The position numbers and the translations under genes are program-made. From positions 5,467-69,466 of IMG/VR virus record IMGVR_UViG_3300024308_000021: a DNA stretch of 64,000 nucleotides; one strand, written 5' to 3'. The notes beneath the pieces were generated by a model. It made no database searches and had not been told where the DNA came from. It worked only from the letters and a program-made list of their open reading frames with translations. Source of the stretch: a virus. Below, piece by piece: positions 4,835-61,016 of the stretch; position 1 is the stretch's first letter; every line of letters starts with the position of its first letter.

Positions 4835-5821
4835 ATGTTGCTGAAAACACCATACGACGCACCGGTCATGAAAGCCTATGACCTCAAAAAAATCCAATCC
4901 CAAGTAGCTGAAGCCATCGTAGCTGGTGAGTATGCTAGTCGTGAAAAACTCGACGAGTCTGCTGCTATCTACAGAACTCCTAATCCGATGTGGGATTTTG
5001 AGCTGGCTAATGACGTCGTGGCTATCGTGAAAAATACTGACTGGAAAACCACAGTCGATCCTTTCCCTATTCCTTTTAAGATGCGCACTGCTGCTGGTAA
5101 AGAGCTGTACGTCCTGGATGCTCGGATGTACACAGCTCCGGCCAACCACTACCGTCAGTACGGCATTATGCACAACCCGTCTGAGATTGGTGTGTATTCC
5201 GACATTATCTCTTGGATGCGTTGCTGGGATGCCCGTGAGGGTGGTGACATTCGTCGTGTGCATGACTACGTGACTGGTACTTTCGCTAACTGGATTGCCA
5301 GTGCTGTTTCCAGGATCACTGGTGTGAACGGTGGTGAGGATTACGATATCATTCGTTTCCTGGCAGCTTACTGGTTCCAGGCTCAGTTCTCTGAAGTACC
5401 TTACGAGGTTACTGTAGAAGAGCGTCTGCGGATGCGTCGCGTAATGACCAACTGCTGGCCTCGCCCGGATTCCGTGGTAGATCTGCAAACCAAGGACTTC
5501 GGTTACATCGGAAACCTGGAAGACTTCCTGGAAGCGGTTAAGAAACAGCTTCCTAACAATCGTCGGGTACACATGCTCAACCGGGCTTACTTCACACAGC
5601 AGATCGCCAACAGCTGGCGCGGCTTCCATGCTGGTGTGATGAGCAACGTGGCTATGGAGTATCCTCCTTTCTTTATCGCCATGTACTACTACTCGCTGAC
5701 CAACGGTTGGGCTAAAGATGTTGGTTTGGGTAAAGTAGCACAGAACCTGCGCGATACTCAAAAGCGTGCAGACTTCCTGGCCTCCTATCGGAGAACTATC
5801 AATGTCTGGAAACAGCCGTAA
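4835..5821 (+). CDS. virion structural protein (phiKZ gp28-like)
   Basis: 328 aa, GGAAGG RBS, divergent from the sheath as in the phiKZ-like core block. Confidence 0.6.
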   Translation: MLLKTPYDAPVMKAYDLKKIQSQVAEAIVAGEYASREKLDESAAIYRTPNPMWDFELANDVVAIVKNTDWKTTVDPFPIPFKMRTAAGKELYVLDARMYTAPANHYRQYGIMHNPSEIGVYSDIISWMRCWDAREGGDIRRVHDYVTGTFANWIASAVSRITGVNGGEDYDIIRFLAAYWFQAQFSEVPYEVTVEERLRMRRVMTNCWPRPDSVVDLQTKDFGYIGNLEDFLEAVKKQLPNNRRVHMLNRAYFTQQIANSWRGFHAGVMSNVAMEYPPFFIAMYYYSLTNGWAKDVGLGKVAQNLRDTQKRADFLASYRRTINVWKQP

Positions 5822-8348
5822 ATTTCTATCTGATTTGGTAGCGCATGCTCGAGCGAACGTGTGGTGTACTCCACGCCAAGACGAGCAGGCTATACTCAAA
5901 CTCACTAGACTGACCCCGGATTTCGGGGTCTTACGACGGTTTGCTCTAGACTGGAATTCATTGGACCTGCCTGAGTCAGGTCCTTATTTCCATGTCTATC
6001 AAATCGGTTCTAACCTTCCTACTGATCTGGGGTTAGGTAACGTAGGACGTGAATGGAAGCGAATGGATCAGATTTGTAAAGATGAGTTGCTGTATGCTGA
6101 TCTCTACGAGTCTGACGGATACCACTTGCCTTTAACAGGTGCTTGGTTCTGTCGTACCGACAACCAGAATTTGCTGTTGGCTGTACGCATCCATCCTAAA
6201 CTTCCAGATCTAAACCAGAACTCAGTTTATCTGCGCTTGTATTCCAGTGCTTGGTTCCGAGTGGAGTCTAATCCCACTGCACCTCACGAGATCCGAGTGC
6301 GTGGTGGGGTAATGACTAGTGTTCCTGAGATTACCACCATTATCACCGAATACAACTCCCTGGTGGGTTTAGGTCGTGTGGGTGTGTTCCTGTACTGGAA
6401 CGGTGTGTGGGTTCGTAACCTAAGAGCTGCTTCGGTAGCTATCGGTGATGTACTGGAGTATGTTTACGATTCTAGTGTTTATCGTTCCGTAGGTGTGGAG
6501 CTGAAGAACCTGGATCTGTTCACCAGTATTATCGACACCACCAACAAATACCTACTGCATGTTCCGAAGTCTGAAAACAATCAGATAGCGTATCGTGACG
6601 ACGTGGAGGTGGTGGTACATCGCCTAGCTGCTGATGGAGATACTGAAGCTGGACTGTATTACCATCGTAACAATGAAAACGGCATGCGGATGGTTACTCA
6701 TAACGACTATTCGTTCCCGGTGCATCATGTTACTGCTGTAGCTAACCGACTCACCCCAGCAGCTCCTATCGACGCTGTAGGGGTGCGTGTGTACTTCCGT
6801 CACAGTGGGTACGACCGTCCGTTAGTGTTTGAATCCAACCGCATACACGAGCTCTACAAGCTCAGCGACACGCAGATCCGTCAGGCGATGACTGGGATGC
6901 ATGCTACTTTACCAGAGTGGCAAGCAGCTCATCTCGAGAACTCCTGGTACACGTATCTGATGCGTAATACCTTCGGTAACTTTACATCCGATGATGTTAT
7001 CCGTGCGTACGGGTATAACGCGATGTCTGTTCTAAGTGGGATGTCTCCCATGCCTCCTCGTAAAGACGAATCTAACTTCCCCGTTCCAGTGGGGTGTGAG
7101 GCTCGGGTTTGTGGTGTGTACGAGTATAAGGATGGGGTACTGTCTGGTGTGGTGTCTGGGTATATGGGTGTTTCCTATACTCCCAACTACACCGGGACTA
7201 ACTTGGTGGAGTATGTGCAGGCCGAACCTACTAACATAGGGATCGAACAACCAGGTACGATGTGGGTACTGGAAGATGACCTAGACTATCGCGTGTATCG
7301 CACGCCGTCTGGGTATCTGCCGGGTAAACGCAAGTGGGTGGATGTTACTGAGTTAGATGTAGTCCAAGAAGACTGGCCTGTGGTGGAGGTTAAGGATACT
7401 ACTGGTATCTACGACTACTGCTTGAAAACCGATGAGCGCTTCGTTACTTATGCTTTTGATTTCAATCCAGTGGATCGACTGTTTAAGTTCGATGTCTTCC
7501 ATTACACTGAAGATGGTGGTGTGGCTACTATGGAGATTCCTCCGGGTAGTTTGGAGCTGTGGTTGAACAACCGTCGTTGCATTCGGGATCTGGATTATCA
7601 CGTAGAGTGGCCTACTGTCGTGATTACCAACAAAGAGTTCCTGATAGAAGGCGTAAACCGTGTTCGGGTACGCGCTGTAGGGTTCTGTACTGCCGACGGG
7701 GAGTTGGAACCATTAGGCGACTTCGGTTACGTAGAGAATGGACTAGTGAGTGTTAATAACCGGTTTAACATTCGGGATGATAAATCCCAAGTCCACATAG
7801 TCTACGGTAAGGTATACGATCGAAGTGTACTGAAGTTCTCTGAAAAAGACTCTGGGGTGTATCTCGACAACGTACGAGAGGGTGCTCCTTATCTGTGCAC
7901 TAACAACTGGGTGCCGGTGCGTGGGGTAGGGGCGGAGCGCTCTGTGAAACTCTACCACGCTGCGCTGGAGCTAGATACCAGGGTCGAAGCTTATATGTCT
8001 CGATACCTACCACAGCCCTCGCGACCGAACTCTCCAGGTATCCCTGAGTTTTACCAGCTTTACAGTCCGTGGTTCAGTAAGCTGACCTGGGATCTGAAAC
8101 TGGGATTACTGCGGCCTGAAGAAGTCACGACCGACAAACAGCTCCTAGATGCCGTAAAACGCTACGAGGAGTTGCTGGGGTACGATCCCCTCAAGACTGG
8201 TGTAGACACTCACTACGTGGCAGTACACCCGCACTCATCCCACAACGTGGTAGAGGTTACTGGTGAGCAGTACGACGTACTGCGTCGAGCTAATCGCCTG
8301 GTGTTCAACAACCAGCTTCTGCTGTCTCAGTTCTATCACTTGGTTTAA
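5802..8348 (+). CDS. large virion/baseplate protein (phiKZ gp27-like, ~848 aa)
   Basis: ATG 5802 after GGAG; NVWCTPRQD N-terminus; synteny. Confidence 0.65.
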   Translation: MSGNSRKFLSDLVAHARANVWCTPRQDEQAILKLTRLTPDFGVLRRFALDWNSLDLPESGPYFHVYQIGSNLPTDLGLGNVGREWKRMDQICKDELLYADLYESDGYHLPLTGAWFCRTDNQNLLLAVRIHPKLPDLNQNSVYLRLYSSAWFRVESNPTAPHEIRVRGGVMTSVPEITTIITEYNSLVGLGRVGVFLYWNGVWVRNLRAASVAIGDVLEYVYDSSVYRSVGVELKNLDLFTSIIDTTNKYLLHVPKSENNQIAYRDDVEVVVHRLAADGDTEAGLYYHRNNENGMRMVTHNDYSFPVHHVTAVANRLTPAAPIDAVGVRVYFRHSGYDRPLVFESNRIHELYKLSDTQIRQAMTGMHATLPEWQAAHLENSWYTYLMRNTFGNFTSDDVIRAYGYNAMSVLSGMSPMPPRKDESNFPVPVGCEARVCGVYEYKDGVLSGVVSGYMGVSYTPNYTGTNLVEYVQAEPTNIGIEQPGTMWVLEDDLDYRVYRTPSGYLPGKRKWVDVTELDVVQEDWPVVEVKDTTGIYDYCLKTDERFVTYAFDFNPVDRLFKFDVFHYTEDGGVATMEIPPGSLELWLNNRRCIRDLDYHVEWPTVVITNKEFLIEGVNRVRVRAVGFCTADGELEPLGDFGYVENGLVSVNNRFNIRDDKSQVHIVYGKVYDRSVLKFSEKDSGVYLDNVREGAPYLCTNNWVPVRGVGAERSVKLYHAALELDTRVEAYMSRYLPQPSRPNSPGIPEFYQLYSPWFSKLTWDLKLGLLRPEEVTTDKQLLDAVKRYEELLGYDPLKTGVDTHYVAVHPHSSHNVVEVTGEQYDVLRRANRLVFNNQLLLSQFYHLV

Positions 8349-28617: not shown

Positions 28618-30744
28618 ATGGCTGAGATAAACCAGTTTCTGTGGGACAAATCCCAATACACACGTGATTTCGATTTCATCAAACATCACATCAACAACCA
28701 AGCTTGGTATCTGAGTAAGATGACCGGCGACCAGCTCGACGAATGTTTGGAGTTCTGCCACCAAGCTTACCGTCCTGGTGGAGTATTCGAATTCAAAGAT
28801 CCTCGTGTGCTAGGTATCTACCAACGTGAGGAAGGTACGCGTAAACTCGAAGAGACTACTGTAACAGCTATGTTAGCTGAGGTAGTAGCTACACGCAGGA
28901 TTATGTCTCCGAGCATGGCTTTCTACATCCACCCTAAAGAGAAGCGTAGTATTCTCGGTAAGTTCATCAAGAAGAACGTGGGGCGTCGTGGTGTAGCTAA
29001 GAAAGAGATGATGCGTGCTAAGATGGCTCTGGACAAAGTCCTCGAGCAGATCAAGAACGACGAACAGTCTTCGTACAAAATCTCAAACAACTCGCTCTCA
29101 GGTGCGCACGTATCCGAGTTCACGATACTGTACCTCAAGTCAGCTCACTCTAGCCTGACTTCACTGTGTCGTACTAGCGCAGCTTATGCTAACGCTAACA
29201 ACGAGAAGTTTCTAACAGGTAACCGACACTACTACGACCGTAATGTAATCCTAGAGAACATCATTAGCATATCCACCCACACCGACTACGTGGCACTGGA
29301 AGCTGTGATGTCCAAATACGGAATCCATTACCCGACCGCTCAAGAAGCTATCGACGTAGTACAACACAGTACTGCTTTCTATTTCCCGAAGCACATTCGT
29401 CTCCACGACGTGGAAGACCTCCTGCATGCAATGACTCCTCTGGAGCGTGCTGCATTCGTTTACACAGGCGATGGTTACCATCTGTGTAAGTACAACGAGC
29501 CTCTCTTCCGCAAGTTTGTGGAAGACATGATTCGTTTGCCAGAAATCCAACACCCAGACCCCGAGTCTGTGTATAAAGAGATGTCGGGTGACACCGTAGC
29601 ATTCGTTTCCAGTAAGATGGCTCACCTCACCCAAGGTAAGAACATCTTCGATAAGGAGCTCGATCCTTCAGTAAAAGCTCTGGTAGCTCAGTCCGTCGTA
29701 GAGATGCACCAGACGCTTGCTGACTACTCGGACTTGATCCGCACCCTGTGGGTTACCTCCAACGTACCAGCTTCCGTAGCGCGCTTTACAGAGTCCACCA
29801 GACGCTGTGGTGTGGTATCCGATACAGACTCTACGATCTTTACAGTACAGTGGTGGTGTAAGTGGTTTACAGGTTACGACCGTGTGGATCAAACCACTAA
29901 CGCAGTACGTAATGCGATGGTGTACCTGGTCTCCCAGCAGATCATCCACATCCTGGCGATTATGTCAGGTAACCTTGGTGTAGATGAATCTCAACTCCAC
30001 CAAGTAGCCATGAAGAACGAATACGCTTTCCCTGTGTTCGTACTGACTTCCAGAGGTAAGCACTACTTTGGTTGGATGGCTGAGCAAGAAGGTAACGTGT
30101 TCAAAGAACCTAAGCTGGAACTCAAAGGCGTAGGTCTGAAGAACTCACTAGCTCCTGCTGAAATCAACAAAGAGTCAGTGGACTTCATCAAAGACTGCAT
30201 GAACACTGTAATGGCTGGTGAACCGATTGAGATGATACCTCGTCTAACCAAGATAGCTGACCGTGAACGTACACTCATGCGTTCTATCACGGAAGGTGGT
30301 TACGAGTTTTACACCTCAGCTCAGATCAAGGACGCTTACGGCGGACCGCTTGAGAAATCGCCTCACCGCTACCACGTTATGTGGGAAGAAGTCTTCGCAC
30401 CCAAATACGGCCCAGCACCTCAACCTCCTTATGCAGCTATCAAAGTCAACATCGAAGCTGACAAACCCTCCAAACTCAAGGAGTGGTTGGCCAGTATCGA
30501 GGATGATGGTGTACGCAGTAGACTGACCGAGTACTGCCGTAGGGAAGGTAAGACCAGCTTCGGAATGTTACTTCTGCCGAAGGAACGTATCGAAGTATGT
30601 GGTGTACCTAAAGAAATCGTTCAGTGTGTAAACGTACGTAGTATGGTTCACGAGATAATGTCTCCTTTCTATATCGAACTAGAGTCATTTGGCTTTTACA
30701 TGAACAACTCGGGTCTCACCAGACTAGTGTCTGACGAATACTAA
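28618..30744 (+). CDS. family B DNA polymerase, motif B/C subunit (phiKZ gp50-like)
   Basis: Motif B YKISNNSLSG, motif C VVSDTDSTIF; I see no motif A or exonuclease motifs in this ORF. Confidence 0.88.
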   Translation: MAEINQFLWDKSQYTRDFDFIKHHINNQAWYLSKMTGDQLDECLEFCHQAYRPGGVFEFKDPRVLGIYQREEGTRKLEETTVTAMLAEVVATRRIMSPSMAFYIHPKEKRSILGKFIKKNVGRRGVAKKEMMRAKMALDKVLEQIKNDEQSSYKISNNSLSGAHVSEFTILYLKSAHSSLTSLCRTSAAYANANNEKFLTGNRHYYDRNVILENIISISTHTDYVALEAVMSKYGIHYPTAQEAIDVVQHSTAFYFPKHIRLHDVEDLLHAMTPLERAAFVYTGDGYHLCKYNEPLFRKFVEDMIRLPEIQHPDPESVYKEMSGDTVAFVSSKMAHLTQGKNIFDKELDPSVKALVAQSVVEMHQTLADYSDLIRTLWVTSNVPASVARFTESTRRCGVVSDTDSTIFTVQWWCKWFTGYDRVDQTTNAVRNAMVYLVSQQIIHILAIMSGNLGVDESQLHQVAMKNEYAFPVFVLTSRGKHYFGWMAEQEGNVFKEPKLELKGVGLKNSLAPAEINKESVDFIKDCMNTVMAGEPIEMIPRLTKIADRERTLMRSITEGGYEFYTSAQIKDAYGGPLEKSPHRYHVMWEEVFAPKYGPAPQPPYAAIKVNIEADKPSKLKEWLASIEDDGVRSRLTEYCRREGKTSFGMLLLPKERIEVCGVPKEIVQCVNVRSMVHEIMSPFYIELESFGFYMNNSGLTRLVSDEY

Positions 30745-58205: not shown

Positions 58206-58246
58206 TCTAGTCAATGTATGACTCATTCAATCCAGGAGTAGAGAAA

Positions 58247-58822
58247 ATGGCTAAGCCTCCGTTCAACAATCAACAACCCCGTCAGCCGTCCCAGACAGCT
58301 CCCCAGCAACCTGAAAAGAAACCCGAGGACAACACTTACCTCGATCAGCCTCCGATCTCTCCTGTGATCGAAGATCTGGCTGCTGGCAACGTAGCTCCTC
58401 GTCCGAAGTCTGACACCGTAGCGATCTTCGAAGACCGCGTGCAGTCTTACCTGAAGGCTTGTGGTCCCACCGTAACCAAGACCCCGTCCTCGATCGGTCA
58501 AGCTCAGGGTGGTTTTATCTACACCATCCAGTCTCTGTGGCGCATGCCGGTACAAGACTTCAAGGAGTGCATGGACTACCTGATGGAAACCTTCCGTCAG
58601 AACCCCAAGATCTTCTGCGAAGCTTTCCTGTTCTCCCACATGGATCAGGTCACCAACGTTTCCTACGAACATCGTCAGCAGCATTACGCTCTGATGAACC
58701 TCATGCTCAACGGGGCTAACCCGGATGTAGTGCTGAAGGAAGTAGTGGACGTCAACCTGGCCTGTCGTGGTCTGCCGGAGAACGCAGCTGAGTTCCTGTC
58801 TGCTTACTACGGCTTGCAGTAA
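58247..58822 (+). CDS. hypothetical protein (191 aa), P/Q-rich N-terminus
   Basis: ATG 58247 after AGGAG; TATG at 58217 may be a late promoter. Confidence 0.75.
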   Translation: MAKPPFNNQQPRQPSQTAPQQPEKKPEDNTYLDQPPISPVIEDLAAGNVAPRPKSDTVAIFEDRVQSYLKACGPTVTKTPSSIGQAQGGFIYTIQSLWRMPVQDFKECMDYLMETFRQNPKIFCEAFLFSHMDQVTNVSYEHRQQHYALMNLMLNGANPDVVLKEVVDVNLACRGLPENAAEFLSAYYGLQ

Positions 58823-58835
58823 TCCCTACAAAGGG

Positions 58836-58876
58836 CATAACTCAGGAGGAGGCCAGTCGGCCTCCTCCTATGCCGC
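58836..58876. terminator. bidirectional terminator
   Basis: AGGAGGAGGCC-agtc-GGCCTCCTCCT with CATA before and TATGCCGC after. Confidence 0.8.
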
Positions 58877-59125
58877 TTAGGCAGCTAATGCATCACGGTT
58901 CTTACGATATTCGCGATATTCTTTCAGTACGTCAGTGTGTGTAGGCATCTTGAAGATTTCACGACAGATTTCAGAAGCATTTACATGACCCGCTGTAGCG
59001 TTGATACCGAAACGACGACGTTGCAGGTCGCTTACGTTTTCGATACGAGCCAGCTCCATCCAGGTAGTTACGCGAGAGATATTCAGTGTATCTTCACCAT
59101 TAGGATAACTGGCAGCTACGTCAAG
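58877..59125 (-). CDS. exon 2 of the PolB exonuclease/motif A subunit
   Basis: LDVAASYPN (motif A D-x-x-S-x-Y-P type) starts right after the intron terminal G. Confidence 0.9.
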   Translation of the reverse strand, partial: LDVAASYPNGEDTLNISRVTTWMELARIENVSDLQRRRFGINATAGHVNASEICREIFKMPTHTDVLKEYREYRKNRDALAA

Positions 59126-59555
59126 CAAGTTGTTCGGTAGAGGCGCGAATTCTACCCGCCCAGCGCTGTTTCACAACAGTACCGGACTGCTCTAGGCTTT
59201 CCCTAGATGTTCAGACTATATCATCATCTCCCGTATTACGAGAGAGACCTCCACTTGGAGCCGCCTGGCCTAAGCCGCTTGCGTGCCCTACTCCCCTGCC
59301 GGGGATAGTCGTTGAACGTTCTTCTGTACGAGACAGAAGCTTCGATGCGAGATTCCCCAATCCACAGTCTGTGTTACCATACCCAAGTGATTAGCTTGGC
59401 CACTATTACATCACTGCAATAGCTTGGTCTACTGGGCTCTAAGCGGGTTCCCGTCAGTTCAAAGGTTGTTTCAGTGAGGATCACTCCTCAAGGGGACCTT
59501 GTTTGTTTATCTCATGCGACGTGGTGGTATGCTACATGAGAGTAAACAGCCGTTG
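59126..59555 (-). mobile_element. group I intron (subgroup IA-like), 430 nt, no homing endonuclease ORF
   Basis: 5' exon ends in U, intron ends in G; P GAACTGACGGGAAC, R GTTCAACGACTAT, S GATATAGTCTGA; IGS CAAGGTCC pairs both exons. Confidence 0.95.
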
Positions 59556-61016
59556 ATCCGCAACGTGAAGGAAGACCAGGGTGCTAAGCTCCGGGAATTC
59601 CTTAATACAGCGTAGTCCATTATCCGCTACCATGTGCGATGGTAGCGTAACAATCCAGTTATCAACGCCTACTACTAGGTCGTCGAGTTCTGGAACTTTC
59701 ATCTTATCGGAAGTAGTACCGATTGCGTGTTCTTCTTGCAGAGCAAAGAAGTGCAACGCATCACAAGTCCGACGAGGTTGTGAGTGGAACTTGTCCAGGT
59801 TCGATACACCAGAGAACAAGTTGATTTTGTTACACAAGTCCATGTTCATCTCGTCGAGTAACTCAACAGAGATACAGTCGAAGATGTTGTAGATGAGATA
59901 TTCGACTTTAAACCTAGACTGCATGAACTCGTGCCACTTCAGTCCTTCCAAGTGGTCAGCTTGTTTGAACTTAAGTTTACGAATCCCCAAGTGACGATGA
60001 AGGATGTTATCCAGCGAGTAACCACCTGGAACTTTACCACCAGCTATCCGGATTTTCTGATAGACACACATCGCATCTAGGAACTTAAATCCAGCAGCAC
60101 ACTTAAAGAAGTGCCAACGCTCGGCAGGGGACAGAGGGAAGTTACGTCCACTGGCAGTTACTTTAACAGTGGAGCCTTCCTTCCAGTAACAATACTGATA
60201 CTTCGTAGGACACCGAGGATCCGAGAACACAGTAGCAGGATCAATCCCACCCTTCTGGAGCGCACTCAGCATCTTAGGAATATCGTACGCCATGTTCCAG
60301 ATAGCTACGATGTCAGGCTGCCACTCGTGAGCGTAACGCATCAGTACCATGGGGACTTCGTGTTCGTGGTCTACGAACTCGATGTACAGTTTAATGTTCC
60401 GTTTGGTTTCGTATTCACCTAGCAGTTCAGTAAACTTGTCACGGATGTCTTGCTCAGTACAGTAGAACCCTTCCAGGAAGAATCGGTTCACTACCAGTAG
60501 TACTCGATCTTTAAAAGTCAAACTGCCCGAAAGGATTTGTTCAGTCCCGTGGAGAACATCGGATTCTAAGTCGAGTACAGCCACACGGTTCAGTGAGTAC
60601 AGGTCAGGGTATTTCTCCTGGTATTTGTGTTTGATGATCTCAGACACACCTACGTCCGCTCCGTAGAGATACGGACTACGAGACATTATCCGAAGGTCGC
60701 CTGTGTTAGGTACTTTCAGTATCCGAGCTATGGTTGGAGCCAACATGCGCTGAGTACACTCGTAGCGCTGTAGGTTCTTTAAAGACTCGAAATCTTTCTT
60801 GTGTTCGTGTTTACGTAACCCTGGTTTAGTGACGTACAAATCCCGCTTGAAATTCTCCAGAAAGCGCAGGTTAGTGGTAGCGGAACCGTCGTTTAGATGT
60901 ATGATCTCCTTCACTAAAACACAGTCGTCCATTGAGTCGTCTTGCGCTTCTATGTAAGTCGCAAGTTTACACTCAAATCCTTTGATGTTGTCTGTATCCA
61001 ACTTAACTGTTTGCAT
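59556..61016 (-). CDS. exon 1 of the family B DNA polymerase exonuclease/motif A subunit (phiKZ gp82-like); 569 aa when spliced
   Basis: ExoI VLDLESD, ExoII WNMAYD, ExoIII YNIFD; ends FLHVAD at the splice site. Confidence 0.9.

Follow-up and report, generated by a model that had tools for sequence, protein, structure and literature searches.

A probable endonuclease-free group I intron beside motif A of a chimallivirus DNA polymerase subunit gene

We analyzed a 64,000-nt stretch of viral DNA (hereafter the window; positions 5,467 to 69,466 of IMG/VR record IMGVR_UViG_3300024308_000021), in which a 430-nt insertion at 59126-59555, on the minus strand, splits a DNA polymerase gene. From its sequence, this insertion is very probably a functional, IA-like group I intron that lacks an endonuclease gene, and whose P1 loop carries a hairpin that we read, with less assurance, as left behind by endonuclease loss. 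The interrupted gene encodes the N-terminal subunit (DNAP-N) of a split family-B polymerase, and the virus is an uncultured chimallivirus (nucleus-forming jumbo phage). A full-length though sub-threshold match to the Rfam model RF00028, an exact exon junction, covariation across a family of related introns, and compensatory changes relative to its closest counterpart, L085, support the identification. The intron is an ordinary member of a family that occupies the motif A region in roughly a quarter of related phages.

The interrupted gene and its exon junction

Exon 1 of DNAP-N lies at 59556-61016 on the minus strand and comprises 487 codons that include Exo I-III and end in ...LHVAD, as established from the open reading frame, its translation, and a profile match to RB69 DNA polymerase. 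Its frame reads on for eight codons past HVAD to a TAG at 59534-59532. Exon 2 (58877-59125, minus strand) has 82 codons plus the stop, begins LDVAASYPNGEDTLNISRVTT..., and supplies motif A and the C-terminal end of the protein; it is recognized by translation and by alignment to RB69 motif A, and is collinear with residues 495-564 of the homologue from Xanthomonas phage RTH11. A search with exon 1 retrieves 290 phage records; all are of the phiKZ/chimallivirus type, and several are annotated as DNA polymerase. Pfam assigns no family to exon 1 alone, and a phmmer search of the PDB with a full-length homologue returned nothing. A profile of intron-free homologues matches RB69 DNA polymerase at E 1.1e-4 and keeps Exo I-III and motif A in collinear order. 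In this alignment the segment aDlDveaaYPn..nisKett, which scores weakly against RB69 when taken alone (-0.4 bits), falls on RB69 residues 405-430 with its second Asp on D411, which puts the insertion two codons 5' of the catalytic Asp of motif A. An earlier reading made from the DNA letters only (hereafter the sequence-only reading) had put the insertion at PolB motif A, and the profile alignment agrees.

The DNAP-N protein ends about 80 residues beyond motif A, as do all of its homologues. Its partner subunit, DNAP-C, is encoded about 30 kb away on the opposite strand (28618-30744, plus strand) by a gene that looks uninterrupted; the 708-aa product matches PF00136 at 29.8 bits, over the cut-off, and has KISNNSLSG as motif B and SDTDS as motif C. 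A two-subunit DNAP-N/DNAP-C polymerase has been described for phage Goslar (bioRxiv 10.64898/2026.10.01.755736). Two minor features of the locus are worth recording. In PhiPA3 (L001, 5053-5378), Phabio, Noxifer, and phiKZ-like phages, exon 1 has about 100-120 in-frame codons inserted compared with the window and RTH11, and a perfect GC-rich inverted repeat (GGAGGAGGCC GACU GGCCUCCUCC) at 58840-58872, probably a two-way terminator, separates DNAP-N exon 2 from a convergent gene for a 202-aa protein at 58214-58822.

By direct reading, the 5' exon ends in GCGGAT at 59556, the first base of the intron is C59555, and the last is G59126. Deleting 59555-59126 joins the exons as HVAD-LDVAASYP, with no residue lost or gained relative to the uninterrupted RTH11 protein (...HVADLDVEGTYPNVEILMNISKETT... 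and ...AHVADLDVEGTYPNVEILMNISKETT...; 583 aa, annotated as DNA polymerase), and the joined sequence aligns collinearly to both RTH11 and 100 uninterrupted loci. The splice originally proposed, GAT|caacgg...aacttG|CTT, thus recreates the junction of the intron-free homologues. Two boundaries, GAT|c...g|CTT and GATc|...gc|TTG, would give an identical mRNA; we chose the former because group I introns follow a U at the 5' splice site and end in G, and a shift of one base breaks both rules. U59556 pairs with G59497 and G59126 is terminal, and the same rule holds in the 12 family introns whose junctions were read.

At its gathering threshold, Rfam reports no match in the whole window, intron included. 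Under an E-value threshold, RF00028 aligns over its full length (model positions 1-253) to 59518-59190, with a score of 45.3 bits (E 4.4e-10) against the curated 50 bits. The covariance-model check that had been suggested for this locus therefore returns a full-length alignment at a sub-threshold score. The alignment has large unmatched inserts in P5 and in P7.2 (between P7 and P3'), and these we take to be the cause of the low score. The L085 intron also falls below 50 bits, at 43.3, while homologous introns at the same site score 57-90 bits. RF00028 was run on the inserts of 19 loci; 17 scored 28-92 bits, and for L052 and L091 nothing was detected at E <= 0.01. Taken with the exact junction and the covariation described below, the full-length but sub-threshold match supports the claim that a group I intron is inserted in a PolB gene.

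RNA architecture and selection on pairing

All of the intron's helices are encoded on the minus strand. The 5' strand of P1 (59555-59559) consists of exon GGAU and the intron's first C, with the 5' splice site after U59556; direct reading and the minimum free energy fold (GGAUC/GGUCC) concur. The exon part of P1 is only 4 bp long, and this GGAU/GUCC P1 recurs across the family. The internal guide sequence, CAAG|GUCC, spans 59494-59501, and CAAGGTCC is read directly at 59501-59494: GUCC (59497-59494) pairs with exon GGAU, with a G.U at the splice site, and CAAG (59501-59498) pairs with CUUG, the first four bases of exon 2, as P10. The P2 hairpin follows at 59475-59490 (UGAGGA-GUGA-UCCUCA; Rfam alignment and folds), and the 5' strand of P3 (59466-59460), P4, P5 with its long extension, and P6 occupy 59322-59466 (Rfam alignment and sub-domain folds). 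P7, the guanosine-binding helix of group I introns, is formed by GACUAU (59310-59305) and AUAGUC (59219-59214); it bounds the segment 59214-59310 and encloses P7.1, P7.2, the 3' strand of P3 (59253-59247), and P8. P7.1 (CCCC-GGCA-GGGG) and a branched P7.2 lie at 59304-59257, between P7 and P3'. The remainder, 59126-59206, holds P9 with a GAAA-type loop, P9.1, P9.2, and a 3' tail ending in G59126; the hairpin of this tail and its GAACAA/GAAGAU are conserved across the family.

The guide, the GACTAT/ATAGTC P7, and the IA-type P7.1/P7.2 insertion had all been called from the letters, and direct reading, the Rfam alignment, and folding find each of them in place. The extra helices P7.1 and P7.2 fit the subgroup IA call. 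Within IA, the assignment is presumably to IA2, the subgroup of the T4 and Twort introns. A 22-nt stretch of the P5 extension (GGCCAAGCUAAUCACUUGGGUA) also occurs as exact copies in seven other viral contigs (L167-L173), two of which are labelled giant-virus MAGs; these contigs share the P5-extension module and not the whole intron, and one of the matches lies elsewhere in the genome that also gave L005. As a probe for close relatives this stretch was discarded, having matched only unrelated introns with the same module.

Homologous loci were gathered from IMG/VR and metagenomes with an alignment query, and 12 introns were aligned with that of the window over the core. When the window's structure is mapped onto 12 family members, 68.3% of cells are paired against 39-43% in slid controls, a comparison in which the structure derives from the window, itself one of the aligned sequences. 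The covariation score is 0.286 against 0.09-0.13 for slid controls, and none of 500 shuffles reaches the observed value. RNAalifold, run on the 12-intron alignment, independently recovers P2, P3, and P6, with double changes in 18 of 22 pairs. Across the 12 introns, pairing in P3, P4, P6, P7, and P9 is 79-97%, and both strands of these helices show changes: P3, P4, and P6 stand at 79-80%, with compensatory changes, and P7 at 97%. P7.1 covaries in the same alignment, and all six pairs of P2 change on both sides somewhere in the family.

The closest comparison is with L085 (JACCEA012144119.1), whose exon 1 is 87% identical in amino acids and whose intron is about 90% identical to the window's over its last 300 nt. 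Per-helix folds retain every helix compared. In P2, GAGGA/UCCUC in the window corresponds to GGAAC/GUUCC in L085, with four pairs compensated; P8 exchanges one C-G for A-U, P9 one A-U for G-C, and in P9.2 three pairs change with pairing kept. These patterns are evidence, drawn from sequence comparison, that the RNA structure of the intron is under selection.

Following the rules of the family, splicing would begin in the primary transcript with guide GUCC pairing to exon GGAU, leaving a U.G at the splice site. Guanosine would then attack after U59556, CAAG would align the 3' exon through CUUG, and the intron would be released with its terminal G59126. The joined exons would read ...HVAD-LDVAASYP..., restoring motif A.

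The P1-loop hairpin and a probable loss of the endonuclease

The P1 loop of the window intron is extended by a 48-nt hairpin at 59503-59550 on the minus strand (UGUUUA-CUCAUG...CAUGAG-AUAAACA). Folded alone it reaches -15.5 kcal/mol (z = -5.1), with none of 200 shuffles as stable; folded with P1 it gives z = -3.7, with GGAUC/GGUCC closing the long hairpin. The extension thus folds as first described, with the in-frame stop (UAG, 59534-59532) inside it. The sequence-only reading had further called this stem-loop unusual and suggested that it could tune splicing. The hairpin is very stable, but L085 lacks it, which speaks against a fixed feature, and we regard tuning as less likely than an origin in endonuclease loss.

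The same position is occupied by much larger inserts in relatives. At the window's insertion site (site A), 8 of about 20 introns are 1.6-2.0 kb long and carry an ORF of 358-458 codons. The product is identified as an endonuclease in four of them, by HNH_3 matches in L049, L006, and L052, one of which also has an I-HmuI NUMOD-like match, and by the record annotation for Goslar gp069; in L089, L100, L098, and L132 we infer an endonuclease from the long ORF at the same position. In L049, L006, L052, and Goslar, the ORF sits between the 5' splice site and the guide, i.e. in the P1 loop, and its last codons overlap or abut the guide. A hairpin precedes the ORF in Goslar, L089, L100, and L098, and on our reading of these sequences its 3' arm holds the Shine-Dalgarno sequence of the ORF. 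The window hairpin therefore stands where relatives have an HNH gene and its leader hairpin. In the 5' arm of the window hairpin, 14 of 15 nt agree with the Goslar leader, a level reached by 1 of 500 shuffles in one of seven comparisons made. A search of the window intron for an endonuclease remnant found nothing credible and no similarity to the family's HNH genes.

Relatives without an endonuclease have P1 loops of four bases (L005, L085, PhiPA3), about 20 (L053), or about 50 (the window, L035, L041), and across the family P1-loop inserts measure anywhere between 4 nt and about 1,500 nt and have no sequence conserved. L096 stands between these and the endonuclease-bearing introns. Its 521-nt endonuclease-free intron (2343-2863) contains the leader hairpin of L089/L100 and the last 51-56 or so endonuclease codons (E 1e-13 to 1e-14) with nothing between, an arrangement that we read as a decay intermediate. 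We thus favor the view that the window hairpin is likely what remained when an endonuclease gene was lost from the P1 loop, because L085 has a minimal P1 tetraloop and no such hairpin, L096 offers an intermediate, and the position is that of the endonuclease gene. The polarity, loss of the hairpin in L085 as opposed to gain in the window, would rest mainly on the YAAC with which introns of this family begin, kept by the window (CAAC, for UAAC in most family members) and lost in L085.

Two other accounts of the hairpin are both unlikely in our estimation, and to a similar degree. One is that the hairpin is a functional add-on that steadies or times the formation of P1, or whose stop codon, the first in frame, halts ribosomes before they reach the guide. 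Its high stability (z = -5.1) and its closing directly onto P1 are consistent with this, as is the fact that four endonuclease-free relatives with long P1 loops, L035, L041, and L053 among them, fold with P1 closing an internal hairpin; moreover, the window has lost the UAA at the intron start (CAAC for UAAC), so that the next stop is the UAG in the hairpin. However, the nearly identical ribozyme of L085 does without the hairpin, and the family's P1-loop inserts vary widely in length and share no sequence. A ribosome-based role is further weakened by the separation of transcription from ribosomes in nucleus-forming phages (PMC12908238).

The second account has the hairpin gained recently in the window lineage, by a small insertion or by recombination with another intron, and never associated with an endonuclease gene. 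The hairpin-free P1 of L085 would be expected if so, and the missing endonuclease remnant and the shortness of the Goslar leader match are also compatible with it. Against it, the window and not L085 keeps the family's YAAC start, and the hairpin's position is that of the endonuclease-plus-hairpin cassette of eight relatives and of the intermediate L096. The hairpin is also single-copy in the contig, so it is not a repeated mobile element, a candidate origin that we reject.

A third possibility, that the intron no longer splices and that a truncated DNAP-N (HVAD plus QRLFTLM) is made while exon 2 is translated separately from a TTG at 59128, is very improbable: an 83-aa TTG-started ORF is called for exon 2, the polymerase is already a split enzyme, and the Rfam score is under threshold, but all core elements are intact, paired changes between the window and L085 keep the helices with none of those compared lost, no Shine-Dalgarno sequence precedes the TTG (CUCUACCGAACAAC), and the break would part the two Asp of ...AD-LD... 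within a strictly conserved stretch.

Distribution, mobility, and related introns

The presence or absence of the intron in relatives, a comparison that had been proposed from the sequence, could be scored at 143 distinct loci, 132 of which reach the end of the gene. In 100 of these the gene is uninterrupted, and the other 32 (24%) have one or two group I inserts near motif A. Introns of this family near motif A are not rare. Three insertion sites are verified in DNA: site D, after ..UGGAU in the DWI codons; site A, after HVAD, which is the window's site; and site B, after HVADLD, as in PhiPA3. A possible fourth, after DLDVxA[S/G], is seen only in the truncated tails of four proteins. At sites D, A, and B (about 30 loci), nearly every junction read has a 5' exon ending in GGAU and a guide ending in GUCC. 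A few 5' exons end in CGAU or UGAU instead; the guide of one of these, L049, has changed correspondingly, GUCAGC pairing with exon GCUGAU, with U-A in place of G-C. The window gene itself has an unoccupied UGGAU at site D (GAT AAC TGG ATT). Four loci (L055, L070, L117, L130) carry two introns of the family about 96 nt apart, at site D and at site A or B. The two in L055 (sites D and B) are close relatives of each other, which suggests spread within the gene. A rough FastTree tree of intron 3' halves (300 nt; no support values given), used only as a hint, does not sort the introns by site.

Mobility of the window copy would require help. The intron had been described as endonuclease-free, and this holds: its only internal ORF is 49 aa long with a TTG start, has no Pfam match, and shows no similarity to the family's HNH genes. 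The 125.6-kb contig, about 45% of the genome, has no HNH_3 gene and no relative of the family endonucleases. Homing would thus need an endonuclease supplied by a co-infecting relative, and such enzymes clearly exist in the family; in our reading, the window copy now passes by vertical descent or moves only when helped from outside. That GGAU recurs at the verified sites would also be in keeping with guide-directed reverse splicing. A broader proposal, which we offer tentatively and consider rather doubtful, is that the intron persists because it brings a benefit: with the GGAU/LD target disrupted, the gene would be immune to family HNH nickases of co-infecting chimalliviruses, and new sites in the gene (three verified, all after GGAU) would be reached by guide-directed reverse splicing rather than by endonuclease homing.

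Goslar offers the nearest described counterpart. Its DNAP-N gene, gp068, contains a self-splicing intron with the HNH/NUMOD1 endonuclease gp069, noted in a 2026 preprint (bioRxiv 10.64898/2026.10.01.755736), and the record (NC_048170.1) gives the junction FVAD|LDISSSYP, the same site as in the window. The two introns share the gene, the codon junction (FVAD|LD and HVAD|LD), the guide core GGUCC followed by P2, and a homologous ribozyme, but Goslar's is 1,762 nt long with a 396-codon endonuclease gene in the P1 loop, whereas the window's is 430 nt long with the 48-nt hairpin there. In PhiPA3 (L001, NC_028999.1) we find a 344-nt group I intron at 5825-6168 (RF00028, 71.7 bits) and a 78-codon exon 2 at 6169-6405, both unannotated, with the gp085 'DNA polymerase' annotated only as far as HVADLD*. 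This intron is of the same family (70.7% identity over 276 nt), is endonuclease-free, and has the GGAU/GUCC P1, but unlike the window's it lies 6 nt further 3' (HVADLD|IVSTYP), directly after the codon for the catalytic Asp, and its P1 loop is canonical and short.

Since SPO1, phage DNA polymerase genes have been known to harbor group I introns. Examples are those of SPO1/SP82 (I-HmuI), Bastille (I-BasI), and LUZ24 (cited in PMC11620839 and PMC10914365). The window intron resembles these in that it, too, is a group I intron placed where a phage replicative polymerase has a conserved catalytic region, and, as in the SPO1/SP82 type, the endonucleases of its family, where present, are HNH enzymes of the I-HmuI type (PF13392 and PF22083 matches). 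The polymerase families, phage lineages, and insertion sites differ, however, and the best-studied cases encode their own endonuclease. Introns are also documented in chimallivirus polymerase genes (PMC11620839), and endonucleases of these phages are known to serve as weapons against co-infecting viruses (PMC11620839). A virion RNA polymerase subunit gene of PhiPA3 holds the gp210 intron, whose active HNH endonuclease harms a co-infecting phage (Birkholz et al. 2024, PMC11620839). Like the window's, this is a group I intron beside the catalytic Asp codons of an essential chimallivirus polymerase gene, but the window intron encodes nothing.

Our results leave the understanding of group I introns unchanged; what they provide is a corrected annotation and one more member, lacking an endonuclease, of a known family. 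As the sequence-only reading anticipated, automated annotation yields a truncated gene: the PhiPA3 and Goslar records, like many proteins in databases, stop at HVAD or shortly after it. Automated calls that stop there drop motif A, and the default Rfam threshold misses the window copy. The true DNAP-N of the window phage would be about 569 aa long, and a similar correction would apply to about a quarter of its relatives, PhiPA3 and Goslar included. The locus also adds one stage to a series now visible in a single gene (endonuclease-plus, endonuclease remnant, hairpin only, minimal P1), and this series fits the invasion and decay cycle expected of homing introns. Finally, a metagenomic DNAP-N locus, L150, shows an odd 169-nt discontinuity near motif A, at which query residue 518 is followed by query residue 495.
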